64,000 bases of DNA from Candidatus Aenigmatarchaeota archaeon (GCA_030670085.1 DAOVCJ010000002.1:4975-68974); one strand, 5' to 3'; counted from the stretch's first letter, positions 6,404-50,846 are shown. The notes: a model not told the origin generated them from the letters alone. Numbers and translations are program-made.

Positions 6404-6787
6404 ATGGAAGAGGAAATCAGAAAGGAGGAACCCAGACCAGAAGAGAAAAAGGAAGAGCCAGAAGAAGCGAAAGAAGAAAAGAAAGAAGAGACCGAGGAAA
6501 AACCAAAGGAAGAAAAACCAAAAGAAATAGTGGAAAGGAAACCCTGGACAAGGTGGACGATGGAAGAGAGAAAAGAACACTTGAAGAAGAGGAGACATGG
6601 TCCAAGGGAAAGATGGTTTGTTCTGCTTTTCTTCTCAATCCTGTTCATTGTATTCCTATCAGCACTGTCCTATTCAATAGTTTACCAGATGGACCCATCC
6701 CTAATAGTAACACTGATTGCAGTCGTTGTTATAATATCCATAGTGGGTATTTTCTACACACAGAACATATGGTATAGAACAGAGTAA
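6404..6787 (+). CDS. Hypothetical protein with an E/K-rich N-terminus and a C-terminal transmembrane region
   Basis: ORF of 127 aa. Low-complexity EEK repeats are followed by two hydrophobic helices. No recognisable domain. Confidence 0.35.
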   Translation: MEEEIRKEEPRPEEKKEEPEEAKEEKKEETEEKPKEEKPKEIVERKPWTRWTMEERKEHLKKRRHGPRERWFVLLFFSILFIVFLSALSYSIVYQMDPSLIVTLIAVVVIISIVGIFYTQNIWYRTE

Positions 6788-6835
6788 TCAGGAATAAAAA
6801 ACTAGGGAATGAAGCGTTCCGCTATTCCGGTAGAA

Positions 6836-7822
6836 TCAGGCACCCTGCTGGGACTCAAGAAAGACTTCCTTTATTTCTATTGGTTCCACTTTCCTGGACC
6901 TGAGACCCTTCCTTATAATAACGAGCCTCTTCCTAGGACCTGGTACAGATCCCGAGAGGAGCAGGTAATCACCCTTTACCAAACCATAGTTCAGCCATCC
7001 ACCCTTGGGATTGATTCCTCCAGAGCCAGTCTTCATAACCATTTTGTTGAACTCCGTCCGGGTCTGGAAACCGAGCTGTCCTGCCATGGCTATCTTCCCA
7101 GGAAGCACCCTTGCCACTCCCCTCACACCGATAACACCGGTATGCCTTCTTTTCCCCTTGTTTTTCCTAGACCTTATTATAACTCCGAACCTCTTGACAG
7201 GGCCCTGGTAACCCTTTCCCTTGTCCACCGCAGAAACATCAATCCATTCCCCGTTCTTGAAGACATCAGAGACCCTTATCTCATCACCAAGCTTCTGCTT
7301 TGCATACTCCCATTTCTTTTTAACATCACCACCCAGACCTAGCTCAAACAACTCTAGTTTTTTCTTCCCTATGCCAGATTCTCTCGGCTGGGTGTGAACA
7401 AGCAACCTTATGTCCGCAACTTTTTCTATCTGCCCTTCAAGGGATTGAATCTTAGTTTTGGGGTCTGTCTTTTTAGGTACCTTTGTTTTCCTGTCAAGGT
7501 CTTTGGAAAGTTTCTCTGCCCAGATGGTCTCAATCCTTTTCAGACCCTCGGATTTTCTGTAAACATGTATTGCGCAAACCCTAAGTGAGGGACAATCCAG
7601 AACCGTTACAGGTTTGACAATCTCCTCACCCTCTGTTGTAGAATCCTTTCTCTGATTAACAAAAACGAGTCTGGTCATGCCTGCCTTGTAACCAGCAAAC
7701 GCCAACGGCAGGGCTTCCTCAATCTTTAATGCCCTGGTCTTGACCCTGGGATAGATTCTCTTGGCTCTCTTTTTTGGCCAGTATGCCCTTGAACCAGCAA
7801 CGGGTTTGTGATGCTTTGCCAT
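6836..7822 (-). CDS. rpl3: 50S ribosomal protein L3 (uL3)
   Basis: Typical archaeal L3 N-terminus MAKHHKPVAGSRAYWPKKRAKR. Length 328 aa. Confidence 0.9.
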   Translation of the reverse strand: MAKHHKPVAGSRAYWPKKRAKRIYPRVKTRALKIEEALPLAFAGYKAGMTRLVFVNQRKDSTTEGEEIVKPVTVLDCPSLRVCAIHVYRKSEGLKRIETIWAEKLSKDLDRKTKVPKKTDPKTKIQSLEGQIEKVADIRLLVHTQPRESGIGKKKLELFELGLGGDVKKKWEYAKQKLGDEIRVSDVFKNGEWIDVSAVDKGKGYQGPVKRFGVIIRSRKNKGKRRHTGVIGVRGVARVLPGKIAMAGQLGFQTRTEFNKMVMKTGSGGINPKGGWLNYGLVKGDYLLLSGSVPGPRKRLVIIRKGLRSRKVEPIEIKEVFLESQQGA

Positions 7823-7831
7823 GAGATCACC

Positions 7832-8242
7832 CTAAACCCTTCTCCCTCTCCTCCCACCTGGTTTTCTTGTCGTGTCGTGCGGGATCGGGGTTACATCCTC
7901 AATTTTCCCTATCCTGAGACCAGACCTTACCAGAGAACGTATGGCTGGCTGAACGCCCTGCCCGGGCATTTTCTTCTTGTGACCCCCTGGTGCTCGGATC
8001 TTCAGATGGACACCCACAAGACCCCTGGACAATGCCTCGGACGCGGCCCTTCTTGCAGCATGCATTGCAGGGAAGGGCATTCCCTTGTCCTTGTCTCTGT
8101 TGGTGACCATTCCACCGGAAAACCTGGCAATAGTCTCAGCTCCTGTTACGTCAGTGATGTGGATTATGGTGTTGTTCTCAGATGAATAGACATGAGCAAC
8201 ACCCCACATATCCCTTTTCCTCTGCATTTCTGAAGCCATCAT
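7832..8242 (-). CDS. rps11: 30S ribosomal protein S11 (uS11)
   Basis: S11 signature [13 protein letters not shown]...HLKIRAPGG. Confidence 0.9.
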
Positions 8243-8703
8243 TTACCACTCTCTTTACTCATCTTTATCCTCTTCTCCTCCTCTAAAGGAACAAGGTATG
8301 AAGGGAAAACAACCCTCCTCCCATCCACAGAAACATGACCATGAACAATCATTTGTCTGGCCTGATTTATCGACTTTGCCAATCCCTTTCTAAAAATAAC
8401 TGTCTGTAACCTCCTCTCAAGCACATCATTAACAGTTAATGCCAGGACATCATCAAGGTCCATTCTCTTTGAAAGGAAACCGAATCTTGAAAGCTTACCC
8501 AAAAGGACTCTCTCCTGATCCTCATCCTCTGATGCAATCAGGTCTCTGGCTCTCCTCCTGAAACCCCTCAGTGCCTCTTCTGCCTTCCAGAGTTCTCTTT
8601 TTCTCCTCAACCCATAGTTATTGAGTAGGGTTTTCTCATCCTTTATTCTAGCCAGATCCCAAGCCTTCTTCGGCCGCTTGAAGGTCTTTCTTATCCTTCT
8701 CAT
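8239..8703 (-). CDS. rps4: 30S ribosomal protein S4 (uS4)
   Basis: Start placed at the internal Met [16 protein letters not shown], just downstream of the S13 stop. Carries the S4 domain. Confidence 0.85.
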
Positions 8704-8707
8704 ACAA

Positions 8708-9253
8708 TCACTTCTTTTTGGATTTTGCAGGCTGCCTCTTCTTCTTTGAAACCCCAACTGTCTTTCCCCCGCTTCCGGAACCTGTTCTCTGGCCGCGGAC
8801 GGGTAGACCAAGTATGTGCCTTACCCCTCTGTAGGATTTCAGTTTCTTCATTTCATTTATGTCCATTTTGTGGGCAAGCTCCAGCTTGGATACGCTCAGG
8901 TGCATGTCCCTGCCTGTTACAGGGTCCCTCTTCCTGTTGTAAAGCCAGGAAGGTATTCCAAACTTCTCGGGATTTAGTATAATCTCCTCTAATCCCTGCA
9001 TCTCCTGTTCTGAGAGCTCTCCAAGCTTCTTGTCACCAAACCCGGTCATTTTTGAAACAGCGTTGCTGAACATGAAAGACACACCCCTTATACTTCTTAT
9101 CGCTACCTTTACTGGTTTTCCACCATCAAGGTTGGTTTCAACCAGCCTTATGATATCCTGCACCCTCTTCTCCTTTTTCTCAGCCTCCTCGGGCTTCTTA
9201 CCTTTGGGAATTTCTTTCCCCTTCTCTGCATGGGCATGCTTTTTCTTTTCCAT
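8708..9253 (-). CDS. rps13: 30S ribosomal protein S13 (uS13) with a K/E-rich N-terminal extension
   Basis: S13 core IIRLVETNLDGGKPVKVAIRSIRGV, preceded by an N-terminal extension of about 28 aa. Confidence 0.88.
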   Translation of the reverse strand: MEKKKHAHAEKGKEIPKGKKPEEAEKKEKRVQDIIRLVETNLDGGKPVKVAIRSIRGVSFMFSNAVSKMTGFGDKKLGELSEQEMQGLEEIILNPEKFGIPSWLYNRKRDPVTGRDMHLSVSKLELAHKMDINEMKKLKSYRGVRHILGLPVRGQRTGSGSGGKTVGVSKKKRQPAKSKKK

Positions 9254-9299
9254 GAAATCACTAATAGTTACTAGTATATGTAAAAGGTATTTAAATTAA

Positions 9300-10076
9300 T
9301 TAAAACTCGCCTCTTTTGCTGAAGAACTTCTCATATTCCAGCGCAGTTTTTTCATAATCCTGTATAAAATTCTCATAGCTCTTTATCATCTTCTGGTCAG
9401 TGAGTCTTGTGACTGGTTCTGATCTTAGCTTCTCAATCCTGTCCCTGAATTTTTTGATTATGCTTTCGCACATCTTTGTCTCGAATTCATAGATATTTCT
9501 TACAAGTCTGGATTTCCTTTTCCTCCAAGTAGAGATTAGAATCGAGTCTATCTCAGGCTCAGAACCAGGCTCATATGACTTTATCTTGATATCCGTTATG
9601 AGCTTCCTAAGTTTAAGCTTCTCCCTTTTGTTAAGTATCAGTTTTTTCGCTCTCTTCAGAGTAAGGGAATCAAAGTACGCGAAAAGCTCGCTCACTACAT
9701 CGAACCTGGTCATGACATACCAGAGCAGTCCCAGGAAGAAGATATAGTAGTTTATGTAAATGATGGAGTCTATTAGAAATTTCTCTATAAGAATATTGTA
9801 AGACCAAAGAACCAGGGTCATCCCTGATGTTAACACTGTTAGTAAGGCATGAGACACCATATACCCAGAAGACTGAATCACTACGAATTTCTTCATCTTC
9901 TTTTCCATAAACAATGCAACATACCAGCTTATTCCGGAATGCAGAATGTAGAACATTATGAAGTATAAGTAGTATGGGAACCCGAATATGATTGCTACTG
10001 TGAAGCTGAATATCCCCATGCAAAAATAGTAGTAATGGATTATCTGGAAATACTTAACACCAATATAGATGTTCAT
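9300..10076 (-). CDS. Hypothetical membrane protein, paralog A (four TM helices plus a C-terminal coiled soluble domain)
   Basis: 258 aa in a low-GC insert. About 75% amino-acid identity to the adjacent paralog B. Confidence 0.5.
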   Translation of the reverse strand: MNIYIGVKYFQIIHYYYFCMGIFSFTVAIIFGFPYYLYFIMFYILHSGISWYVALFMEKKMKKFVVIQSSGYMVSHALLTVLTSGMTLVLWSYNILIEKFLIDSIIYINYYIFFLGLLWYVMTRFDVVSELFAYFDSLTLKRAKKLILNKREKLKLRKLITDIKIKSYEPGSEPEIDSILISTWRKRKSRLVRNIYEFETKMCESIIKKFRDRIEKLRSEPVTRLTDQKMIKSYENFIQDYEKTALEYEKFFSKRGEF

Positions 10077-10102
10077 ATAATTTTATAGGGATTCCTGATT
10101 TA

Positions 10103-10876
10103 TCAATAGTTCTTTTTGCTGAAGAACTTTTCATATCCCAGCGCAGTCCTTTCATAATCCTGTATAAACTTTTCATAACTCTTTATCATCTTCTGGTCAG
10201 TGAGGGTCAGATCTGGTTTTGATCTTATTTTCTCAATACTCTCCCTGAATTTCTCGATTATCTTCTCGCACATCTTTGTCTCGAATTCATAGATATTTCT
10301 CTCGATGTTTGACTTTCTTTCCCTCCATGCAGATATCAGAATCGAGTCTATCTCAGGTTCAGAACCAGGTTCATAGGACTCTATTTTGAGATCAGTAATG
10401 AGCTTTCTAAGACCAAGCTCCTCCCTTTTGTTAAGTATCAGTTTTTTCGCTCTCTTCAGAGTAAGGGAATCAAAGTACTCGAAGAGTCCACCCACTAAAT
10501 TGAACTTGGTCATGGTATACCAGAGCAGTCCCAGGAAGAACACGAAGTAGTTTATCTGAATAATAGAGTCTATTAAAAACCTCTCTATAAATACCTGGTA
10601 ATACCACAGAAACAGGGTCAGCCCTGCTGTTAAGAATGTTAATAAAATATGGGACACCATATAGCTATTGGATTGTATCACCACGAATTTCTTCATCTTC
10701 CTTTCCATAAAATATGCGACGTACCAGCTTATTGCAGAATGGATGATGCAGAAGATTATGAAGAATATGGAGTAGGGGAACCCGAATATGATCGCTGCCG
10801 TGAAGCTGAATATCCCCATGCAGAAATAGTAGTAATGAATCATCTGAAAATACTCAACACCAATATAGAGACCCAT
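10103..10876 (-). CDS. Hypothetical membrane protein, paralog B (tandem duplicate of 9300..10076)
   Basis: 257 aa. Long identical DNA runs with paralog A, for example gttaagtatcagttttttcgctctcttcagagtaagggaatcaaagtac. Confidence 0.5.
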   Translation of the reverse strand: MGLYIGVEYFQMIHYYYFCMGIFSFTAAIIFGFPYSIFFIIFCIIHSAISWYVAYFMERKMKKFVVIQSNSYMVSHILLTFLTAGLTLFLWYYQVFIERFLIDSIIQINYFVFFLGLLWYTMTKFNLVGGLFEYFDSLTLKRAKKLILNKREELGLRKLITDLKIESYEPGSEPEIDSILISAWRERKSNIERNIYEFETKMCEKIIEKFRESIEKIRSKPDLTLTDQKMIKSYEKFIQDYERTALGYEKFFSKKNY

Positions 10877-11015
10877 ACAATTTTATAGGATTTCTGGGTT
10901 TATCAATACCAAAAGCAAGCCCACAAAAACCGCTTTATTAACCCGGAATAAACTTAAATATATTATGAATACAGTATATAGTTAATAATCACGGGAAAGC
11001 AACCAAAGAGTGTAT

Positions 11016-11045
11016 GACGGCTTGGACATACTGGGTTAAGCCGTC
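11016..11045 (+). repeat. Hairpin element copy 3 (GACGGCTT-N14-AAGCCGTC) in the leader of the L4 operon
   Basis: Perfect 8-bp stem with a 14-nt loop. Lies 16 nt upstream of the rpl4 ATG and downstream of AT-rich TATA-like sequence around 10953-10983. Confidence 0.8.
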
Positions 11046-11060
11046 CAACCGAGTGATGGT

Positions 11061-11858
11061 ATGAAAATACCGGTGTACAGCATGAACGGGAAAGTGAAGG
11101 GGAGCTTAAAGGTAGACAAAGCATTCTCCAACCCCGTTAGAAATGACCTGATTCAGAGGGCAGTCCTGGCAGAGCAGTCAAAGCTCATCCAGGCCTACGG
11201 AAGCGATCCCCAGGCAGGGAAAAGAACATCAGCCCATTACCATGGAAGAAGGGGAAGGAGGATGACCATGATGAACAGGGAGATGGCAAGGATGAAGAGG
11301 ATCCATGGTTCAGGTGGACTTCACATGAGGGCAAGGTTCGTTCCCCAGGCAGTCAAGGGAATGAAGGCCCACCCACCAAAGGCAGGAAAGAAATGGGCCA
11401 TAAAGATAAACAAAAAGGAGAGGATAAAAGCCCTGCTCTCTGCTGCATCAGCATCATCTAAAAAGGAGATGGTTGAGAAGAGAGGCCACATCCTGGATGG
11501 AGTGAAGCATGTCCCGCTGGTGATTGAGGACAAGATGCAGGACCTGAAAAAGGTCAAGGAGATCAAAGAGGTCCTGGAAAAGCTCGGCCTGAAAAAGGAA
11601 CTGGAAAGAGTGAAGGAAAGGAAGGTGAGAGCAGGCAGGGGAACTGCAAGGGGGAGGAAGTACAGAGTAAAGAAAGGACCCCTTCTTGTGGTAGGAAAAG
11701 ACGGAGGAATCACAAAGGCCGTTCGGAACCTGGCAGGGGTTGATATTGTTGAGGCGGACAACCTTAACGTCTCGATGCTTGCGCCCGGGACACAGCCGGG
11801 CAGATTATGCTTATGGACTGAATCAGCTGTAAAGAAGATGGAGACCCTGGGAGACTGA
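11061..11858 (+). CDS. rpl4: 50S ribosomal protein L4 (uL4/L1e)
   Basis: N-terminus MKIPVYSMNGKVKGSLKVDKAFSNPVRNDLIQRAV is typical archaeal L4. Confidence 0.9.
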   Translation: MKIPVYSMNGKVKGSLKVDKAFSNPVRNDLIQRAVLAEQSKLIQAYGSDPQAGKRTSAHYHGRRGRRMTMMNREMARMKRIHGSGGLHMRARFVPQAVKGMKAHPPKAGKKWAIKINKKERIKALLSAASASSKKEMVEKRGHILDGVKHVPLVIEDKMQDLKKVKEIKEVLEKLGLKKELERVKERKVRAGRGTARGRKYRVKKGPLLVVGKDGGITKAVRNLAGVDIVEADNLNVSMLAPGTQPGRLCLWTESAVKKMETLGD

Positions 11859-11859
11859 T

Positions 11860-12177
11860 ATGGCAGAAAAAAAGAAGGAAGTGAAAAGAGAGAAGGAGAA
11901 AGCGACGGAAGCGAAACAGGATCCCTGGAAGGTCCTGATGTATCCCCAGCTTGCAGAGAAATCCATGAACATGGTGGAACTCGAGAACAAGCTGGTTTTC
12001 ATAGTTAATAAGAATGCGAAAAAAGAACAGATAAAGGAAGCTGTCGAAAAACAGTTCAATGTAAGGGTTATCAAGATAAATGTTGAGATAACAAGGAAGG
12101 GTGAGAAGAAGGCCTACGTAAAACTCCATCCGGATGATTCAGCAGCGGACATAGCCTCAAGGATGGGAATGTTATAA
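11860..12177 (+). CDS. rpl23: 50S ribosomal protein L23 (uL23)
   Basis: DPWKVLMYPQLAEKSM...KLVFIVNKNAKKEQIKEAVEKQFNVRV. Confidence 0.9.
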   Translation: MAEKKKEVKREKEKATEAKQDPWKVLMYPQLAEKSMNMVELENKLVFIVNKNAKKEQIKEAVEKQFNVRVIKINVEITRKGEKKAYVKLHPDDSAADIASRMGML

Positions 12178-12193
12178 GCGAAGGTGAAAGAGT

Positions 12194-12862
12194 ATGGGAA
12201 AGAGAATCATACAGCAGAGGAGAGGAAAGGGTTCCCCAACTTACAGGGCACCCCCGTACAAGTTCAGACCCAGCCTTAAGTATAAGAACCAACTTGGAAG
12301 GGTTGTGGATATAGTTAATGATAGGATCAGGAATTCCCCCTTGGCAGAGATTAAGTATTCAGACAGGAGCAAGGGCTACATAATTGCTCCTGAGGGAATA
12401 AGGGTTGGGGATTCGATAGAAAGATTCGTAGTGCTGCTTTCCCGGGTAACAGAGGGGATGCAGATATCAGCAATAGAAACCTCTCCGAATTCAGGACCAA
12501 AGCTTTGCAGGACACCCGGATCATTCGCCACCATGGTATCCAGGGGAAAGAAGGAGTGCATAATCCAGCTCCCCTCCAAGAAAAAGAAAAAGCTGAATCC
12601 GAACTGCAGGGTTATTGTAGGGATTCCTGCAGGAGAGGGGAGAAGGGAGAAGCCGTTTGTGAAGGCAGGAAAGAAGTGGATTGCAATGCATGCGAGAGGA
12701 AAGCTCTACCCCAGAACATCAGGGGTAGCAATGAATGTTGTTGATCACCCGTTCGGTGGTGGTTACAGCGGTCTTGGAAAGCAAAAGACAGTGTCAAGGC
12801 ACACCCCACCAGGAAGGAAGGTGGGTTCGATATCACCAAGGAGAACCGGTAAAAAAAGATAG
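12194..12862 (+). CDS. rpl2: 50S ribosomal protein L2 (uL2)
   Basis: Begins GKRIIQQRRGKGSPTYRAP and carries the L2 C-terminal HPFGGG motif (VDHPFGGG). Confidence 0.9.
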   Translation: MGKRIIQQRRGKGSPTYRAPPYKFRPSLKYKNQLGRVVDIVNDRIRNSPLAEIKYSDRSKGYIIAPEGIRVGDSIERFVVLLSRVTEGMQISAIETSPNSGPKLCRTPGSFATMVSRGKKECIIQLPSKKKKKLNPNCRVIVGIPAGEGRREKPFVKAGKKWIAMHARGKLYPRTSGVAMNVVDHPFGGGYSGLGKQKTVSRHTPPGRKVGSISPRRTGKKR

Positions 12863-27922: not shown

Positions 27923-28014
27923 GGATTATAATTTGTCCCACTACCGATAAATATGTTTAAGAAACCTTGCGGTTTTAAACGAAGCGTTAAAAAACTTACT
28001 GCTAAGACAATGAA

Positions 28015-28668
28015 ATGAAAATACTAGGAAGGAGAGTATATTCCGTGGATCTTTCACCCGTTGTCAAAAACTCAATCAGGGTTAGCGTTGAACAGAAAGA
28101 TGGGGATTGTAAAAGGAAGATAGAACCATATTATGAATGCACGGAAAACTGTGACGGTCTCTTTATGTTTGCCGACTGTATATTTTCTGAAGAAAACCTT
28201 TCAGGAGAAGCATACATCTGGGCTAATGCCCTGACCAAGAAACGCGATTACATTGACCCGAGTCTTTTTTCTTTTTATGGTGTGGAAAGTTTCGAAGGAC
28301 TGGAAAAATTATATGAAGAATTAATGAAAAAAGGCGACAGATTCAAACTGGAGATAATACGCAAACCAGGAGATATAATATACAAGATAAACGGAGAAAT
28401 GGTAGCCAGGAAATCCGAATGTGGTCTGGTAAACGAAGAGCATGTCTTCAAGGGAGAGATCCTTGAAACCCTTGAGGCCATAGAAACAGATCTGCCTTAT
28501 TTTGTAAATAATAGTAGGAAGATGACACTCGAAGAGAAGATACGAGAGGTATCTGAGGTAGTCTTGGAAAAAACCGTAGCATGGGAAACAATAAAATACA
28601 TGTTCGAAGAAGACCAGGAGTTCATTTCAGCATTCGAGGAACACATGAGAAAAATAAGAAAAAACTAA
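28015..28668 (+). CDS. Hypothetical protein (217 aa)
   Basis: ORF only, with no recognisable motif. Confidence 0.3.
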   Translation: MKILGRRVYSVDLSPVVKNSIRVSVEQKDGDCKRKIEPYYECTENCDGLFMFADCIFSEENLSGEAYIWANALTKKRDYIDPSLFSFYGVESFEGLEKLYEELMKKGDRFKLEIIRKPGDIIYKINGEMVARKSECGLVNEEHVFKGEILETLEAIETDLPYFVNNSRKMTLEEKIREVSEVVLEKTVAWETIKYMFEEDQEFISAFEEHMRKIRKN

Positions 28669-28704
28669 CAACCCAAGTCCGACCCGTTTCTAATCTCAAT
28701 TAAC

Positions 28705-29151
28705 TTATCCATGGTCCTTAACTTCTTGACACTTTACTAGAAGCCTCGATGTTTTCACCTTAACCTCCTCAAACTTTACTAAAAACCTAGATGTTGTCTG
28801 GATGTCGTTTTTTTCATATGCTTTAAGCGCCCTAGCTAAAAGTGAATGAGAATATTCATTTGAATATTCTAATAAAAAAGAAGGCAGTACTTCATTGTTT
28901 CCTGAAAAATCCTCAAAAGCCTTTTCATAAATTTCTATACGCAGATCCATTAGAGAATCCGGGAATTCCCTGGCTGGTTTCTCTCCTACCCTTTCCTTCA
29001 ATTCCCTGTCCTTTCTCAATGCTATTTCTGCCTTTAATTTCAATATGTTCCATTTTCTGCCTATATTTTTGTAATTCGGATTTTCTTCTTCAAGTAATTT
29101 CCTAATGGTCCTGAAATACGATTTCTCTCCCAAACCTTCGTACTCACTCAT
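28705..29151 (-). CDS. Hypothetical protein (148 aa) with a C-terminal internal duplication
   Basis: TSRFLVKFEEVKVK / TSRLLVKCQEVK, from a tandem DNA duplication of about 30 nt at 28710-28800. Confidence 0.3.
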   Translation of the reverse strand: MSEYEGLGEKSYFRTIRKLLEEENPNYKNIGRKWNILKLKAEIALRKDRELKERVGEKPAREFPDSLMDLRIEIYEKAFEDFSGNNEVLPSFLLEYSNEYSHSLLARALKAYEKNDIQTTSRFLVKFEEVKVKTSRLLVKCQEVKDHG

Positions 29152-29299
29152 AATAACACCTAAATACCACCAATAAGTGATTAATAATAATGTTTATAAA
29201 CGTTGCGTTGAGCTCAGAATCCAAGTTTCGAGTGGCTGTTGTTTTTGGATCAGGGATTGTTTTAAAAATCAGCAAGTTGTATATTAGATAAGGAGTTTT

Positions 29300-29557
29300 A
29301 TGGAAGAAGAAAAGAAAAATGAAGTGGAAGAAGAAGAGAAAGAAGAAACAGAAGAAGAAAAAAAGGAAGAAGAGAAAGAAGAAGTGAAAAAAGATAGTGA
29401 GAAGGAACAGGAAAAGGACAGATTCGGAAGAACACTGTACACTGCAACGTGTTCTGATTGCGGAAAAGAGACAAAGGTCCCCTTCAAGCCGTCAGGAGAC
29501 AAACCTGTCTATTGCATGGAATGTTACCAAAAGCACAGACCGAAGAGAAGCTTTTAA
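29300..29557 (+). CDS. Small acidic protein with a C-terminal CxxC...CxxC zinc ribbon
   Basis: E/K-rich N-terminus, then CSDCGKETKVPFKPSGDKPVYCMECY. Confidence 0.4.
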   Translation: MEEEKKNEVEEEEKEETEEEKKEEEKEEVKKDSEKEQEKDRFGRTLYTATCSDCGKETKVPFKPSGDKPVYCMECYQKHRPKRSF

Positions 29558-29690
29558 TCTATTTGATATAGCGGTCTTTGATTCTTTGTTCTGATTTTCC
29601 TAGTTTTTACACTAAGGTTGTTTTTTGGTTCAGGAATCTCCATTGTTTAAAAGCCGGGGAGACAATAATTAGATTAAAGGAGGGATAAAA

Positions 29691-29936
29691 ATGATGACAG
29701 TTTTTGAGGAGATAAAGAAGCAGACCCTGACCTTAATGACAGCGGCTCTAGCTTTCGTTGCAGCGCTTATCTGGAAAGATGCGATATCCGCATGGCTGGC
29801 ACCATTGTACGGGAGTGCAGAGGGTGCATCGAGCCTTACGATAGCAGCCCTTGTAGTGACAGTGGTTGTTGTTATAGTAACCATAGTGCTGGCAAAACTA
29901 CTCGCACCAAAGGAAGCAAAAGAGGCATCCAAATAG
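29691..29936 (+). CDS. Small membrane protein (81 aa)
   Basis: Hydrophobic helices. Preceded by AAGGAGGG. Confidence 0.35.
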   Translation: MMTVFEEIKKQTLTLMTAALAFVAALIWKDAISAWLAPLYGSAEGASSLTIAALVVTVVVVIVTIVLAKLLAPKEAKEASK

Positions 29937-30078
29937 TAAAAAACATCTGAAGCGATTAATGCAGAATTCTGATAGTTCTGGTTACGATGCCCATAGAATT
30001 CGAATCAGGAAAAGGACTCAAAACATATTTAATTCAGAGAAACAAATAATACTTAATAATTTTTGATTCGGAGGTGGA

Positions 30079-41888: not shown

Positions 41889-42815
41889 TTATTTTTTCCC
41901 GATACCTATCCAGTGATAACCTTCTGGTAAAAGATAGAGAGACATGTTATCTTTATCATATCCAGCTTTAATCATTAAATCTTCAAGGTATTGTTTACCC
42001 CTGTAATTTAACTTCCATCTACCAAAAAACTCCATCCAAAACCTCATCCACATATGCATATCCATATTGCTTGTAATAAGTGTTCCCTCCTCTCGTGATA
42101 CTTCTTTGGAATTCCTTAGTAAGTTTATACTTCTTTCATCATCAAGATAGTCCATTATCCCCTGTGTAATTACGATATCATAAGAATTACCGTTCTCGTA
42201 GTGATGCATCTTACCTATTTTTCCTCTCTTAAATGTTATATTTTTCAATCCTTTATTTTTTGCAATATTTGATCCCAATTCCATAGCATCCTTACATTTG
42301 TCTATGCAGGTAGCATAAACATCTATACCCTCCTCTTTAAGGAATTCTACAGCCTCTATAACATCTCTACCTGGACCAGAAGCCAAACTTAAAATATCAA
42401 CCTTTCCATTGTTTGACTCTGCATATTCTTTACCCAGTTTTTTCATCTGTTCAACATATTCGACAAACCTTGCCCTGGTAGCTCTTGCAGCCTTTGAATT
42501 GTAGAACATCTTGTCAGTCAGGTGCTCTGGAACAAAAGCAACGGTTTCTATCCCTTCTGGCTCATTCCCATATAAACGATCAAGAATCTTCCATGAGCCA
42601 GGGTTCTCAATGGTATCTCTTCCAATCTTGCTATGTTTATGAAGGTATTTTATAACTGCTCTTCTAGGTGATTTGAGAGGATGCTTCAAAAAATTTATTT
42701 TTAGTTTATCTATTGAAAATACTCTTTCTACTTCTTCTGGACTTATAAGATCTATGTAGCCTAGACGATTCACTGCCTCACCATTTACTCTCCCATTCGC
42801 AGTATGGAGAGCCAT
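41889..42815 (-). CDS. Class I SAM-dependent methyltransferase
   Basis: Motif I ILSLASGPGRDV. Low-GC island. Overlaps the V4R gene by 38 nt, and a GTG start at 42776 is an alternative. Confidence 0.6.
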   Translation of the reverse strand: MALHTANGRVNGEAVNRLGYIDLISPEEVERVFSIDKLKINFLKHPLKSPRRAVIKYLHKHSKIGRDTIENPGSWKILDRLYGNEPEGIETVAFVPEHLTDKMFYNSKAARATRARFVEYVEQMKKLGKEYAESNNGKVDILSLASGPGRDVIEAVEFLKEEGIDVYATCIDKCKDAMELGSNIAKNKGLKNITFKRGKIGKMHHYENGNSYDIVITQGIMDYLDDERSINLLRNSKEVSREEGTLITSNMDMHMWMRFWMEFFGRWKLNYRGKQYLEDLMIKAGYDKDNMSLYLLPEGYHWIGIGKK

Positions 42816-43320
42816 TTCTTATGCATTTAACCTCAACAAGTTTTGCATTTTTAACCCCAAGTTCAACCTCCCCGTGTGCGGCGTAAACTCCCATAAACCA
42901 GTCACATATCATAGATTTTTTCCCGTATAATTTTGCTCCATGCTCTATTACAGGGTTGTTGCGTACATGGATTATCATATGATGGTGTCCGTCTTTCTTT
43001 ATATCAGCTTTGATAAATTCGACCTTACCAAATCCTATAAAATCCAACAACGCCAAAACAATTTTCTGGGTAGCCCACCCACCCTTCAGTTTAGCTCCAG
43101 TACATTTAACTATTTCCTTACCAGCATCATATCCAGCTTCGTACCCAATTTTATATAGATAATCTTTACCCAATTTTTCCCCAACATTCTGTAAATTTAA
43201 AGCAAATGCCCTGGCAGGATATAACATCCAATCCATCCTTCCGTATAATCTGATCCTTCCCTTTTCGTTTGTAAATGCCCTGCCGATCAGCATTTTTTTC
43301 AGTACAGTTGATAAGACCAT
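42778..43320 (-). CDS. V4R-domain (4-vinyl reductase-like, small-molecule-binding) protein
   Basis: Size and pattern of a V4R domain, with conserved C-terminal Cys (KCIRNGSPYCEWE). Weak assignment. Confidence 0.45.
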   Translation of the reverse strand: MVLSTVLKKMLIGRAFTNEKGRIRLYGRMDWMLYPARAFALNLQNVGEKLGKDYLYKIGYEAGYDAGKEIVKCTGAKLKGGWATQKIVLALLDFIGFGKVEFIKADIKKDGHHHMIIHVRNNPVIEHGAKLYGKKSMICDWFMGVYAAHGEVELGVKNAKLVEVKCIRNGSPYCEWESKW

Positions 43321-43322
43321 TA

Positions 43323-43574
43323 TTAATCCACCTTCAACAGTTCGTATATCACTCTTAATTTTTCAATATCATGCGGCCAGGCAATCAAAGCCTTCCCTAT
43401 TCTTTTAGTTCTTATCCTCTCAGCTTTTTCAAGCTCCTTTATGTGGTAGCTTATCTTCTTGATGTTGCTGTTGTTCACTTCCAGTTCGAGGTTTCTGACA
43501 AGTTCCTTTATATGAACAGGCCAGTGGTGCTCAATATTTTCCATTACATTTTTTCTCAGTTCTTTCCCTCTCAT
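43323..43574 (-). CDS. Small winged-helix transcriptional regulator
   Basis: 83 aa with HTH-like IKELVRNLELEVNNSNIKKISYHIKELEKAERI. Lies 2 nt upstream of the V4R gene. Confidence 0.45.
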   Translation of the reverse strand: MRGKELRKNVMENIEHHWPVHIKELVRNLELEVNNSNIKKISYHIKELEKAERIRTKRIGKALIAWPHDIEKLRVIYELLKVD

Positions 43575-44008
43575 ACATTATTATATAAGTGAAAAAATTA
43601 TAAATAGATAAATTCACATATGTGAAAAAATAGTTTGATGTGAAGATTTCTTTAACTACTTAGGATAATCCAGATCCAGAGAAAGTTTTTGCTTATGATG
43701 CTTTCCACCGTAAATGTCACTCTCTAAAATTGATTCAGCCGCCTTGTCTCTTATATATTTATCCAAATGATGGCAACCTCTTTCAAAGCCTATTATTAAT
43801 GCAGCAGTAGCGAGAGCGTATATTACAGGTTTTTTAAGTTTCATTCCAGACTACCTACTATATTTTATTGTGTAAAAATTTAAATACCTATTACATAACG
43901 AATAAAGATATTCCTAGCGCAGTGGCTCTGACTAAAAAATAAAAAAAAAGAGAAAAAATGTTAAAAGGGCTAATTAAATGCGCCCCCTATTAAAAAAACC
44001 AAAAGGTT

Positions 44009-48364: not shown

Positions 48365-49447
48365 ATGTCAAATAAGGGAGACGACTTGGACAGATTGGAC
48401 AAGGTCGTCCAACCAAAAGAATCGAATGACGACTTGGTCAAATCAGATAAAGTCGTTCAACCAAAGGAATGGCCTGTTGCAGAGGGAAGGTACAAAGTGG
48501 GAAATAAGGATTCCCCGATTGCAGTGTGTACAATGGCATCTGTTGAGATGAATATGCCCATGGACAAGATCGCAATCATTGGAAAATGTGTGACCGAGAA
48601 CTTAGGGGTAGAGAAGATAATAAAGAACACGATATCAAACCCGAAAATAAGATACTTGATATTCTGCGGCAAGGAATCGCACGGACATTTCGTGGGCCAG
48701 GCTATGAAGTCCCTGAAGGAAAACGGAGTAGACGGGGAGAAGAGAATCATCGGAGCAAAGGGAGGCATGCCTGTTCTAAAGAACCTTGAGATGGAGGAGA
48801 TAGAGAGGTTCAGGGAACAGGTAGAACCGATTGATATGGCAGACGAGACAGACACTGCAAAGATACTGGCAAAGGTTAATGAGCTGTTTGAAAGGAACCC
48901 AGGGCCATTCGAAGGAGGGAGTATGGAGACAGAAGAAGAGGTAAGGGAGACCAGGGCAGAGTTCCACCCTATCGCCGAATGGATGAAGGATCCAGAGGGC
49001 TTTTTCACAATATACCCAAATGCGGAGAGAGAGGAGATAGTTGCTGAACACCACGACAACGAAGGCAAGATGAAGAGCAGAATCTTTGGGAAATCAGCAG
49101 AAGACATATACCACCATATAATAAAAAACAACCTGGTTTCCAGGTATGACCACGCAGCCTACTTGGGAAGGGAGCTTGCAAAAGCAGAGCTTGCGATGAG
49201 AAACCAGCTGGACTATGAACAGGACGCTGATTTAAAAACCATGAAACAGAATAATGAACAAACAGAGCCAACGGTTCCCAGAGAGCCGGAAATTTCCAGA
49301 CCACTTCCCCCAAAACCAAAAAAACCGAAAGGTAGGTTTCTCACCTACATCAAGGGGGGAAGGGAGATCGCAGTGGAGGACTTTACAAGACAGGACAATG
49401 AATTCAGGGCTCTTCTCAGGGAAAGAGGAATGTCAAGAATATTTTAG
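48365..49447 (+). CDS. MtrA-like protein (tetrahydromethanopterin S-methyltransferase subunit A family homolog) with an extra C-terminal domain
   Basis: WPVAEGRYKVGN...IAVCT...IIGKCVTENLGVEKII...SNPKIRYLIFCGKESHGHFVGQA...ENGVDGEKRIIGAKGGMPVLKNLEMEEIERF follows the MtrA pattern (WP..GEY.VG..VAV.T..G.C.TEN.GIEK..SNP.IRYLI..G.E..GH..G). The N-terminal 32 aa are two in-frame hairpin elements. Confidence 0.55.
   Translation: MSNKGDDLDRLDKVVQPKESNDDLVKSDKVVQPKEWPVAEGRYKVGNKDSPIAVCTMASVEMNMPMDKIAIIGKCVTENLGVEKIIKNTISNPKIRYLIFCGKESHGHFVGQAMKSLKENGVDGEKRIIGAKGGMPVLKNLEMEEIERFREQVEPIDMADETDTAKILAKVNELFERNPGPFEGGSMETEEEVRETRAEFHPIAEWMKDPEGFFTIYPNAEREEIVAEHHDNEGKMKSRIFGKSAEDIYHHIIKNNLVSRYDHAAYLGRELAKAELAMRNQLDYEQDADLKTMKQNNEQTEPTVPREPEISRPLPPKPKKPKGRFLTYIKGGREIAVEDFTRQDNEFRALLRERGMSRIF
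48380..48409 (+). repeat. Hairpin element copy 12 (GACGACTT-N14-AgGTCGTC) inside the N-terminal coding region of the MtrA-like gene
   Basis: 8-bp stem including one U.G pair, with a 14-nt loop ggacagattggaca. Encodes DDLDRLDKVV. Confidence 0.7.
48428..48457 (+). repeat. Hairpin element copy 13 (GACGACTT-N14-AAGTCGTt), in tandem 48 nt (16 codons) after copy 12
   Basis: 14-nt loop ggtcaaatcagata. Encodes DDLVKSDKVV. Confidence 0.7.
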
Positions 49448-49478
49448 AGATTTGAATTGGAAATCAAGGGTGGTGAGA

Positions 49479-50273
49479 ATGGAGAATGAGAACAAGGAGA
49501 ATGCAAGTAAGAATCCTTATCAGCCCCTCATAGTCAGGGGTAAAAATCTAGGTGAGGCATGGGAGAATGCGGTAAGAGCAATGATGCAGAAGGGGTATGA
49601 CAGGTTCGTGAAGGCACCTGAATACCAGACATGGACAAAGGATTCCCCAATGTTCATAATGGTTTCGGATCCATTTGCAGATCCAAGATTCTCTCCAAAG
49701 GCCCCGCTCACGCAGGACATGGCGGATGAGTATGCAAGGAACCTGGTCAACGGGATGCCAAAGGAGAAAGAGAATTCGTTCGATTACACGTATTACTCAA
49801 GGCTGAGGCATTACCCGGACTGCCTGATAAGGGCGGGCATGCCTGCTGTCTCGGATGAGCATGAGATCAAGGACTATATAAGAAAGGTTTCAGGAGGCAA
49901 GTGCATTGTGCAGAGAATAGACCAGGTGGAGAAAGCGATCGAGATATTCAAGAAGGACCCGACCAGGAGGACAGTGGTAATGCATACTTGGATTCCCATG
50001 CGGGACCTGGCAAAGTTCACGCCAGAGAGGAAAGACACATCATCGCCCTGCCTTGTTCTGGCCCATCCGCAACTGGTTGAGGAAAAACTCCACCTCAACG
50101 TTGTGATGAAGACCAACGACCTCTATTCAGCCTGGCCTGGCAACGCCTATGCATTCACTGCTCTGCAGAAGTATATGGCAGACAAGATAGGTGTTGGGGT
50201 CGGTCACTACACACACTTCTCCATTGCCATGCAGGTGTACCAGGAAGTTTATGAAGCTGCAAAAATGGTTTAG
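49479..50273 (+). CDS. thyA: Thymidylate synthase ThyA (archaeal type)
   Basis: RRTVVMHTWIPMRDL...SPCLVLAHPQL...NDLYSAWPGNAYAFTALQ...GHYTHFSIAMQVY matches the ThyA motifs (RRxxxxAWNP, PCH, DxFLGxPFNIASYALL, GDAHIY). Start placed at MENENKE (ATG 49479). Confidence 0.75.
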   Translation: MENENKENASKNPYQPLIVRGKNLGEAWENAVRAMMQKGYDRFVKAPEYQTWTKDSPMFIMVSDPFADPRFSPKAPLTQDMADEYARNLVNGMPKEKENSFDYTYYSRLRHYPDCLIRAGMPAVSDEHEIKDYIRKVSGGKCIVQRIDQVEKAIEIFKKDPTRRTVVMHTWIPMRDLAKFTPERKDTSSPCLVLAHPQLVEEKLHLNVVMKTNDLYSAWPGNAYAFTALQKYMADKIGVGVGHYTHFSIAMQVYQEVYEAAKMV

Positions 50274-50282
50274 AGGGATGGA

Positions 50283-50846
50283 ATGATTTTACCAGACCAC
50301 GAGATCAGGAAACTGCTTAAAGAGGGAAGGATAGTCATAGAACCCCTGGACGAAGACGTTCAGATACAGCCTGCAGGTGTTGACCTGAGGCTCGGGAACG
50401 AGTTCAGGATTTTCAAGGCAACGTCCCTCCCCTACATAGACACCAGAAAGAAACCAGAGAACTATACCGATACCATAAAGATCAGTGATGACCAACCATT
50501 TATCATACACCCTGGAGAGTTCGTTCTTGGAACAGTTATGGAGTACATGAAGATACCCAGCGATCTCATGGGCTCTGTTGACGGAAGGTCATCTCTGGGA
50601 AGACTGGGGATAGCCATACATGCAACCTCGGCATCCATAAACCCGGGCTGGGAGGGAAGGTTCGTTCTGGAGATAACCAACATTGGAAGAGCGCCTGTCG
50701 CGATATACCCAGGCATGCGTATCGCCAAACTAACCCTCCACAAACTCTCCTCACCAGCAGAGAAACCATACGGCTCCGGAAGAAAGCATAAGTACCAGAA
50801 ACAGGAAGAAATCTCCCAGAGCAGAATTCATGAAGAAGGAGATTAA
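50283..50846 (+). CDS. dcd: dCTP deaminase (dUTPase superfamily)
   Basis: MILPDHEIRKLLKEGRIVIEP...GVDLRLGNEF...GRSSLGRLGI. Confidence 0.85.
   Translation: MILPDHEIRKLLKEGRIVIEPLDEDVQIQPAGVDLRLGNEFRIFKATSLPYIDTRKKPENYTDTIKISDDQPFIIHPGEFVLGTVMEYMKIPSDLMGSVDGRSSLGRLGIAIHATSASINPGWEGRFVLEITNIGRAPVAIYPGMRIAKLTLHKLSSPAEKPYGSGRKHKYQKQEEISQSRIHEEGD

Follow-up and report, generated by a model that had tools for sequence, protein, structure and literature searches.

An MtrA-like gene beside a divergent thymidylate synthase gene in DPANN archaea and CPR bacteria: a possible corrinoid-linked route to dTMP

The 64,000-nucleotide stretch of DNA analysed here (the window; GCA_030670085.1, DAOVCJ010000002.1:4975-68974) comes from a Candidatus Aenigmatarchaeota archaeon and carries, at positions 48365-50846 of the + strand, three close-packed genes that may form a corrinoid-linked module for the synthesis of deoxythymidine monophosphate (dTMP). 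They encode a protein with an MtrA domain and a DUF4346 domain (MtrA-like), a protein related to the thymidylate synthase ThyA (ThyA-like) and the dCTP deaminase Dcd. All three had been named in a preliminary description made from the sequence alone, and each was found on that strand and at the position given there. The genes are separated by 31 nt (mtrA-like/ThyA-like) and 9 nt (ThyA-like/dcd). The ThyA open reading frame (ORF) was listed as 49254-50273, which overlaps the mtrA-like gene by 194 nt. The true start is likely the ATG at 49479, giving 264 aa. It lies behind a GGTGGTGA motif, and a separate gene prediction on Logan contigs of identical sequence returned the same 264-aa product. 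The best PDB matches of the dcd product were 2qxx (E 1.9e-47) and 4a6a, both with E about 1e-47. The features of the module are collected in Table 1.

Table 1. Features of the three-gene module (positions counted from the first nucleotide of the window).
Feature	Position	Strand	Basis
mtrA-like gene, 360 aa	48365..49447	+	ORF; Pfam and NCBIfam matches; 99-100% identical protein on public contigs
N-terminal 32 aa, disordered	48365..48460	+	AlphaFold2 (AF2) predicted local distance difference test score (pLDDT) <50 for aa 1-32
MtrA Rossmann-type corrinoid-binding domain, aa 33-190	48461..48934	+	PF04208 E 3e-54, 183.7 bits (cut-off 25)
Glu78 codon, Glu54 equivalent (His-Glu hydrogen-bond relay)	48596..48598	+	30-residue spacing to His same as in 5LAA; codon checked
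His108 codon, putative lower axial ligand of cobalt (MtrA His84)	48686..48688	+	GKESHGHFVGQ vs GSEVQGHIVGQ of 5laa; codon checked
DUF4346 domain, aa 208-287	48986..49225	+	PF14251 (PterinBD-DUF4346) E 3.2e-26, 92.4 bits (cut-off 29.6)
Pro/Lys/Glu-rich disordered linker, about aa 290-322	49232..49330	+	mean pLDDT 49-65 over aa 291-320
C-terminal mini-domain, aa 323-360, ends ...EFRALLRERGMSRIF	49331..49444	+	beta-hairpin plus helix; pLDDT about 77-79
ThyA-like gene, divergent, 264 aa	49479..50273	+	PF00303; identical 264-aa product on Logan contigs
Part of subfamily-specific insertion between invariant Cys115 and Cys142	49821..49904	+	120-member conservation; codons checked
Cys191 codon, predicted catalytic nucleophile	50049..50051	+	aligned with catalytic Cys of solved ThyAs; invariant; codon checked
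dcd, dCTP deaminase, 187 aa	50283..50846	+	TIGR02274 216.2 bits (cut-off 92.8); PF22769 E 4.6e-49

The 360-aa protein consists, in order, of a disordered N-terminus, an MtrA corrinoid-binding domain, DUF4346, a linker and a C-terminal mini-domain. Its earlier assignment to the MtrA family was upheld by hidden Markov models. In addition to PF04208, the protein passed the NCBIfam subfamily model NF002126 (188 bits vs a cut-off of 161); TIGR01111, the equivalog for true MtrA, was not reached (173.9 bits vs 249.15). The closest solved relative is 5LAA, the cobalamin-bound cytoplasmic MtrA homologue of Methanothermus fervidus (E 6e-47), and further PDB matches of the domain were 8q3v and 5l8x. In 5LAA, His84 is the lower cobalt ligand and Glu54 its hydrogen-bond partner (PMC4915002). 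The check for a corrinoid-binding histidine was positive, with His108 and Glu78 of the window's protein matching these two residues; His108 is kept in 87 of 88 homologues and Glu78 in all 88. These ligand residues, together with the B12-uptake genes beside the module in bacteria (see below), predict that the protein binds a cobamide. A membrane anchor was not evident in the sequence or the AF2 model, no transmembrane predictor having been run.

The preliminary description had also pointed to a C-terminal extension of about 190 aa of unknown function. Such an extension does exist, but it measures about 170 aa and is partly recognisable: it is made up of DUF4346, a hydrophilic Pro/Lys-rich linker and a small soluble mini-domain. 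DUF4346 was predicted to form a small beta-beta-beta-alpha-alpha domain (AF2 of the domain alone, pLDDT 93.1). It carries an invariant HAAYLGRELxKAE motif, with H263, Y266 and E270 invariant in 88/88 homologues, and Foldseek comparison of the model with the PDB gave no match with E <0.3. The linker differs in length among homologues. The mini-domain (about 35 aa) is kept in long-form homologues and missing from the 260-290-aa forms and from a fusion with ThyA described below, and the N-terminal 32 aa are missing from most homologues. The AF2 model of the full-length protein had a pLDDT of 84.6.

Some smaller features were seen in this protein and its homologues. A DKVVQPKE peptide occurs twice in the disordered N-terminus (window 48398-48469); in the homologue P0009 a related repeat, VVNPKESNDGLVKPEQTVNPKE, is placed instead in the linker between MtrA and DUF4346. 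At two loci a separate ORF of 115-117 aa lies between a short-form MtrA-DUF4346 gene and thyA (L004, 6685-7038; L005, 6805-7152), and its C-terminus is loosely like the window's mini-domain (...F..L...LRERG...), a weak similarity. The homologue P0081 (466 aa), whose N-terminal part is lost at a contig end, has an intein-like insert ending in ...GFLVHN just before the near-invariant Cys of CVTENLG in the MtrA domain, a point that corresponds to about position 48587 of the window.

The ThyA-like protein matched PF00303 with 43.6 bits (cut-off 24.3), and it scored under the cut-offs of both the methanogen-type model TIGR03283 (133.3 vs 174.55 bits) and the canonical model TIGR03284 (26.9 vs 108.35 bits). 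Solved ThyAs aligned with it over aa 145-259 only, at no more than 24 bits, and the first 145 residues did not align. Equivalences to Escherichia coli ThyA were obtained from the matches with solved ThyAs and by hhalign of the family against E. coli ThyA, an alignment that is unreliable in its N-terminal part, where the folate-binding Trp80/Trp83 loop would have to be sought. By these equivalences C191 (in SSPC), R163-R164, D214, N222 and Y254, which are invariant in 120 family members, are E. coli C146, R126-R127, D169, N177 and Y209, and E. coli Arg166 and His207 are replaced in the family by Lys211 and Gln. The residues on the side of deoxyuridine monophosphate (dUMP) are retained. Relative to the TIGR03283 model the protein has about 44 additional residues, among them the two invariant cysteines C115 and C142. 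It stops 10 residues past Y254, compared with about 55 past Tyr209 in E. coli, and is therefore without the segment of about 55 C-terminal residues that closes over the folate in canonical ThyA.

The pairing of these two genes is conserved well outside the window. A scan of one genome per species gave 38 loci, from DPANN archaea (Aenigmatarchaeota, Nanoarchaeota, Woesearchaeota and Pacearchaeota) and from bacteria of the candidate phyla radiation (CPR; Nealsonbacteria, Paceibacterota, Gottesmanbacteria, Parcubacteria and bins labelled Saccharibacteria). Four of them were uninformative, owing to contig ends or a run of N. In 32 of the 34 informative loci the MtrA/DUF4346 gene is followed directly, on its own strand, by a ThyA-like gene, and dcd was found in 27 loci. 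The reverse look-up started from ThyA-like proteins found by their own similarity, that of the window's own organism included, and gave MtrA and DUF4346 within 1.5 kb upstream in nine cases out of nine. The adjacency is thus far beyond chance and spans two domains of life. The gene order is mtrA-thyA-dcd in DPANN and dcd-mtrA-thyA in CPR, where the surrounding genes (NusG, L11, GatB, MiaA) are wholly different from those of DPANN and only the trio is common to both. The neighbourhood on which the preliminary description had built its claim was therefore kept in both directions and across the divide between archaea and bacteria; the label archaeal that it gave to the module holds for the archaeal loci but is too narrow, as CPR bacteria have the module as well. 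The viral contigs searched held no relative.

The closest complete chromosome, that of Ca. Aenigmatarchaeota CP070801.1 (L002; about 86% nucleotide identity to the window DNA), was considered as an exception to the adjacency and rejected, the gene being broken by a run of N and the locus hence uninformative. There (6600-12600) the orthologous MtrA-like gene breaks into the run after residue 218, and the genes beyond are unlike those of the window; judged by eye, they may include a glycosyltransferase gene and an ATPase gene. Either a gap in the assembly or the insertion of an element may account for this.

Other nucleotide genes accompany the module. A thymidylate kinase gene adjoins it at several loci, for example at L046 (4427-5110) in the order tmk-mtrA-thyA-dcd, and a DeoC-family aldolase gene follows thyA in CPR loci such as L021 (8306-8938). 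With these neighbours the module is a small deoxynucleotide gene island. On one archaeal metagenome contig a B12-binding radical S-adenosylmethionine (SAM) gene was seen about 1.6 kb upstream of the module (L043, 2145-3611, - strand).

Four distinct loci harbor the module in an unfused form, MtrA-MtrH-DUF4346-ThyA-dcd, with MtrA and MtrH fused in one of them. Their ThyA-like proteins are 66-68% identical to that of the window. The MtrH-like protein matched solved MtrH (E 3e-40) and MtgA, a methylcorrinoid:tetrahydrofolate (THF) methyltransferase (E 4e-26). Two of the four also have, upstream and in divergent orientation, a gene for serine hydroxymethyltransferase (SHMT). Since a methyl route would need a methylene-pterin reductase, the flanks of these two loci were extended, and a gene resembling that of methylenetetrahydrofolate reductase (MTHFR) was found within about 5 kb in both. 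As the order of the unfused genes suggests, the fusion of MtrA with DUF4346 in the window may have come about when an MtrH between the two parts was lost. A metagenome scan with MtrH, using generic peptide patterns, gave one relevant locus (L050, a near-duplicate of L044) and five distant MtrH loci without ThyA. In another unfused locus (L056, 1880-2152) a Cys-rich ORF of 90 aa (CGGCRC...), unlike the tail of the window's protein, lies between DUF4346 and thyA.

The components of the module were also found as single polypeptides. DCD, MtrA and DUF4346 are fused in three metagenome-assembled genomes of CPR bacteria (L019, L024 and L030), with a mutual identity of 75-78% and no internal stop, and P0285, the representative of a 50%-identity cluster, has the same architecture. 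P0089 (526 aa) joins MtrA, DUF4346 and ThyA.

Two further genes, for a DUF4430 protein and a DUF6580 membrane protein, lie between L11 and dcd in CPR loci, the first in eight loci and the second in six, and both occur again in L047. B12 binders of the transcobalamin type have DUF4430 as their C-terminal domain (PMC4350170), and the profile of the DUF4430 protein gave a weak match to gastric intrinsic factor (E 0.015). The DUF6580 profile matched, over its full length, CbrT (PDB 6FNP; E 3.7e-5), the B12-specific S-component of an energy-coupling factor (ECF) transporter. ECF-CbrT/CbrS is a vitamin B12 uptake system of Lactobacillus delbrueckii, and in the CPR relatives the CbrT-like and DUF4430 genes stand immediately upstream of dcd-mtrA-thyA. 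Such genes were absent from the window and from the DPANN loci, and no ECF energising module was seen in the flanks.

We propose, with about an even chance of being right, that the module makes dTMP by a methyl relay in which a corrinoid passes the methyl group to dUMP bound by the ThyA-like enzyme. The 360-aa protein would be the corrinoid-carrying subunit, with an MtrA-type B12-binding domain, a His-on cobalt ligand and the fused DUF4346 domain probably acting as adaptor or cap. Its cobalt would be methylated as Co(I) to methyl-Co(III). In the unfused form this step would be carried out by the adjacent MtrH-type methyl-pterin:corrinoid methyltransferase, and the SHMT and MTHFR-like reductase near two of these loci could supply the methyl-pterin. 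Gene order and fusions make the ThyA-like protein the candidate catalytic subunit for the methylation of dUMP, which it would activate by addition of Cys191 to C6; C5 would then take the methyl group from methyl-Co(III), yielding dTMP and regenerating Co(I) without pterin oxidation. The role of dcd would be to supply the deoxyuridine nucleotide (dUTP or dUMP). The absence of any redox partner or reductase from the cluster fits a redox-neutral methyl relay, in which the pterin would stay at the tetrahydro level. Corrinoid binding, a physical complex, the transfer of methyl rather than methylene and the direction of flow are all predicted here from sequence.

The earlier suggestion of a corrinoid-linked one-carbon (C1) supply to thymidylate synthase gains support, on genomic grounds, from the fusions, the B12-uptake genes of CPR and the MtrH-containing unfused form. 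ThyA and ThyX are, to our knowledge, the only established routes to thymidylate. The module may represent a third kind of thymidylate synthase, in which a ThyA-fold enzyme uses a protein-bound cobamide (on MtrA-DUF4346) as methyl donor, with reloading by MtrH where it is present, and needs neither pterin oxidation nor a dihydrofolate reductase; we hold this fuller claim tentatively, at slightly less than an even chance. The parts of the module are known ones, and there is a substantial chance that together they make a genuinely new kind of thymidylate synthase.

The proposed system can be set beside several that are characterized. With methanogen MtrA and its cytoplasmic homologues (5LAA, 5L8X, 8Q3V) the window's protein shares the Rossmann-type corrinoid domain over about 150 aligned residues, including the His and Glu; unlike it, the protein carries DUF4346 and the mini-domain, and scores below TIGR01111. 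Methanogen MtrA is encoded in the mtrEDCBAFGH operon, whereas the window gene is partnered with a ThyA-like gene and not with MtrB-H and coenzyme M chemistry; no other mtr gene was found in the window. The unfused relatives pair a corrinoid protein with an MtrH-family methyltransferase, as do MtrH/MtrA, MtgA/MtgC of Desulfitobacterium (6SJ8) and MetH, and the MTHFR-like gene near the unfused module parallels the methyl-THF supply of MetH. The corrinoid domain itself is MtrA-type, in contrast to those of MetH and MtaC. Compared with three-component methyltransferases, the proposed acceptor enzyme would have a ThyA fold and the methyl group would go to a carbon of dUMP instead of to a thiol or to the nitrogen of a pterin. 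The fused form of the window has no first methyltransferase (MT1) in the cluster, and the ThyA-like protein is a candidate for the second methyltransferase (MT2). Cobalamin-dependent methylation of an sp2 carbon is known from TsrM, a radical SAM family enzyme of unrelated sequence that takes its methyl group from SAM.

With the methanogen ThyA of TIGR03283 the ThyA-like protein shares a short C-terminus, and with E. coli ThyA (PF00303) the catalytic Cys, the Arg-Arg pair, the uracil-reading Asn and the equivalents of Asp169 and Tyr209. ThyX, the known alternative thymidylate synthase, leaves the pterin tetrahydro (PMC9012536). For the pterin the net outcome would be no different in the proposed system, which has no kinship to ThyX in sequence or fold, lacks a flavin domain and would use a corrinoid carrier instead.

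A number of observations weigh against a corrinoid methyl relay or limit the evidence for it. Two loci, L003 and L023, are real exceptions to the gene pairing, with no ThyA within 1-2.8 kb downstream. In DPANN the synteny is wider than the trio (SMC upstream; L10e and glmS downstream), and the conservation there thus partly reflects relatedness. The two loci with SHMT and MTHFR-like genes are syntenic with each other and amount to about one independent observation, and P0089, the single ThyA fusion, comes from one short assembly. In the window itself no MtrH (by tblastn), SHMT, MTHFR or B12 gene was found, CbrT-like and DUF4430 genes included, and a Pfam scan of ten further window ORFs gave no C1, pterin or cobamide genes. 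SHMT and MTHFR, and MtrH by tblastn, were likewise not found in the 38 related genome loci, most of which are of the fused type. The orientation of the domains is uncertain in the full-length AF2 model (predicted template modelling score, pTM, 0.61).

Two points of the same kind concern the cofactor of the enzyme. Asp214 corresponds to Asp169, a residue that contacts the pterin, and is invariant, so the ThyA-like protein may still bind a pterin. In Methanosarcina, cell extracts produce dTMP when given formaldehyde and tetrahydrosarcinapterin (PMC9931769), which is usually read as a methylene-pterin route; a prior reduction to the methyl level would still be compatible with that result.

The same two points bear on a reading of the ThyA-like protein as a conventional thymidylate synthase that depends on methylene-pterin, with MtrA/DUF4346 (with or without MtrH) as an accessory in C1 handling. 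It would then give no methyl group to dUMP, and might act as a methyl shuttle between methyl-pterin and another acceptor, as a buffer of the pterin pool or in the hand-over of a cofactor. This we consider unlikely. It agrees with the conservation of Asp214 and of the ThyA core overall, with the dependence of dTMP synthesis in archaeal extracts on formaldehyde and a modified folate (PMC9931769), and with the presence, adjacent to the unfused form, of SHMT, the maker of methylene-pterin. It does not sit well with the loss of the folate-closing C-terminal segment, with an N-terminal half that cannot be aligned to canonical ThyA or with the absence of a dihydropterin reductase from every cluster, and the strict two-way coupling and the fusions with DCD and ThyA are hard to square with a mere accessory. 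Purified methanogen ThyA is said, in work by Krone et al. in 1994, to have formed no dTMP with either methylene-THF or methylene-tetrahydromethanopterin.

The corrinoid could also take part as a reductant. In that case C1 would enter as methylene, at the formaldehyde level, and oxidation of the corrinoid from Co(I) to Co(III) would provide the two electrons that reduce an exocyclic-methylene intermediate, in place of the hydride given by folate in ThyA or by flavin in ThyX. The MtrH-type methyltransferase and the MTHFR-like gene indicate chemistry at the methyl level instead, and the module loci examined contain no ferredoxin or reductase, even if ferredoxin+DUF4346 fusions that occur elsewhere could re-reduce a corrinoid. 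The SHMT adjacent to the unfused form and the two extra invariant cysteines in the insertion of the ThyA-like protein would suit such a scheme. We know of no precedent for a corrinoid in this role, and we regard the scheme as improbable.

Slightly less probable again is a reading in which MtrA/DUF4346 binds B12 as a sensor or regulator and might adjust dTMP synthesis to the B12 available, coordinated for instance with a B12-dependent ribonucleotide reductase, or in which the adjacency is inherited synteny that involves no direct coupling of function. The conserved DPANN surroundings (SMC; L10e, glmS) point in this direction, as does the cluster nrdJ-cbrS-cbrT-pduO of L. delbrueckii, in which cbrS-cbrT accompanies nrdJ. 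Against it stand the trio as the only element common to the DPANN and CPR contexts, the translational fusions with DCD and ThyA, the catalytic-type MtrH of the unfused form and the nine positive reverse look-ups out of nine. That the ThyA-like enzyme instead hydroxymethylates or methylates dCMP, CMP or RNA uridine through the corrinoid system and makes no dTMP, as might be read from its scores under the curated cut-offs of all thymidylate synthase equivalogs and from CMP hydroxymethylases among the PDB matches at similar scores, is very improbable given the invariant uracil-selecting Asn222 (Asn177 equivalent), the dcd that is always adjacent and sometimes fused, the thymidylate kinase adjacent in several loci and the lack of any other thymidylate synthase in the loci.

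DUF4346 was followed beyond the module. A search of 1.84 billion representatives gave 939 clusters at 50% identity with the domain, in which it was found alone, after a ferredoxin (ferredoxin+DUF4346), as MtrA+DUF4346, as DCD+MtrA+DUF4346 and with a Cys-rich N-terminus (Cys-rich+MtrA+DUF4346); according to NCBIfam it also stands at the end of a dihydropteroate-synthase-like family. The ferredoxin fusions, of the 4Fe-4S type, comprise P0274 and about ten similar representatives of 190-200 aa, and many stand-alone DUF4346 proteins have 100-160 aa. The domain thus goes together with partners of the corrinoid, pterin-binding or iron-sulfur kind, which would fit a role in docking or capping.

The same MtrA+DUF4346 core, with the His conserved, is found in betaproteobacterial proteins of the NF002128 type (Dechloromonas, Accumulibacter, Thiobacillus), which have an extra Cys-rich N-terminal domain that is absent from the window's protein. 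In Dechloromonas sp. ARDL1 the gene (L041, 8001-9143) lies in an operon with genes for an ArsR-type regulator, a thioredoxin-like protein and a membrane protein of DsbD type, and no ThyA was seen there. This large family with Cys-rich N-terminus, MtrA and DUF4346 (P0292-P0513) may be a metal- or metalloid-related corrinoid system. Relatives of it with added membrane segments and a GCCGSP motif were also seen (P0262, P0348 and P0275).

A corrinoid-linked synthesis of dTMP by this small module of two or three genes would join two puzzles, thymidylate synthesis in archaea and the role of MtrA and MtrH outside methanogens. What MtrA, MtrH and MtrAH homologues do in organisms other than methanogens has been called unclear (PMC9635834, PMC11291895), and archaeal thymidylate synthases are described as uncharacterised in recent literature. 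In the literature searched we found no paper that links thymidylate synthase with MtrA, MtrH, DUF4346 or a corrinoid protein, and the most relevant papers, on the MtrA-like proteins and on the thymidylate metabolism of Asgard archaea, are silent on such a link. If the proposal is true, soluble MtrA/MtrAH homologues outside methanogens would gain a first defined function, and so would DUF4346. In many DPANN archaea and CPR bacteria DNA synthesis would then require B12, which would bear on how these organisms depend on their hosts and communities to obtain cobamides.

In the window the module is preceded by genes for SMC and a small membrane protein and followed by those for ribosomal protein L10e, a nucleotidyltransferase and glmS. 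Farther away, two tandem paralogous ORFs on the - strand (9300-10076 and 10103-10876) encode membrane proteins of 258 and 257 aa with similar N-termini, the first of them without a Pfam match. The G+C content, about 0.45 elsewhere, drops to 0.383 at 28001-30000 and to 0.357 at 42001-44000.

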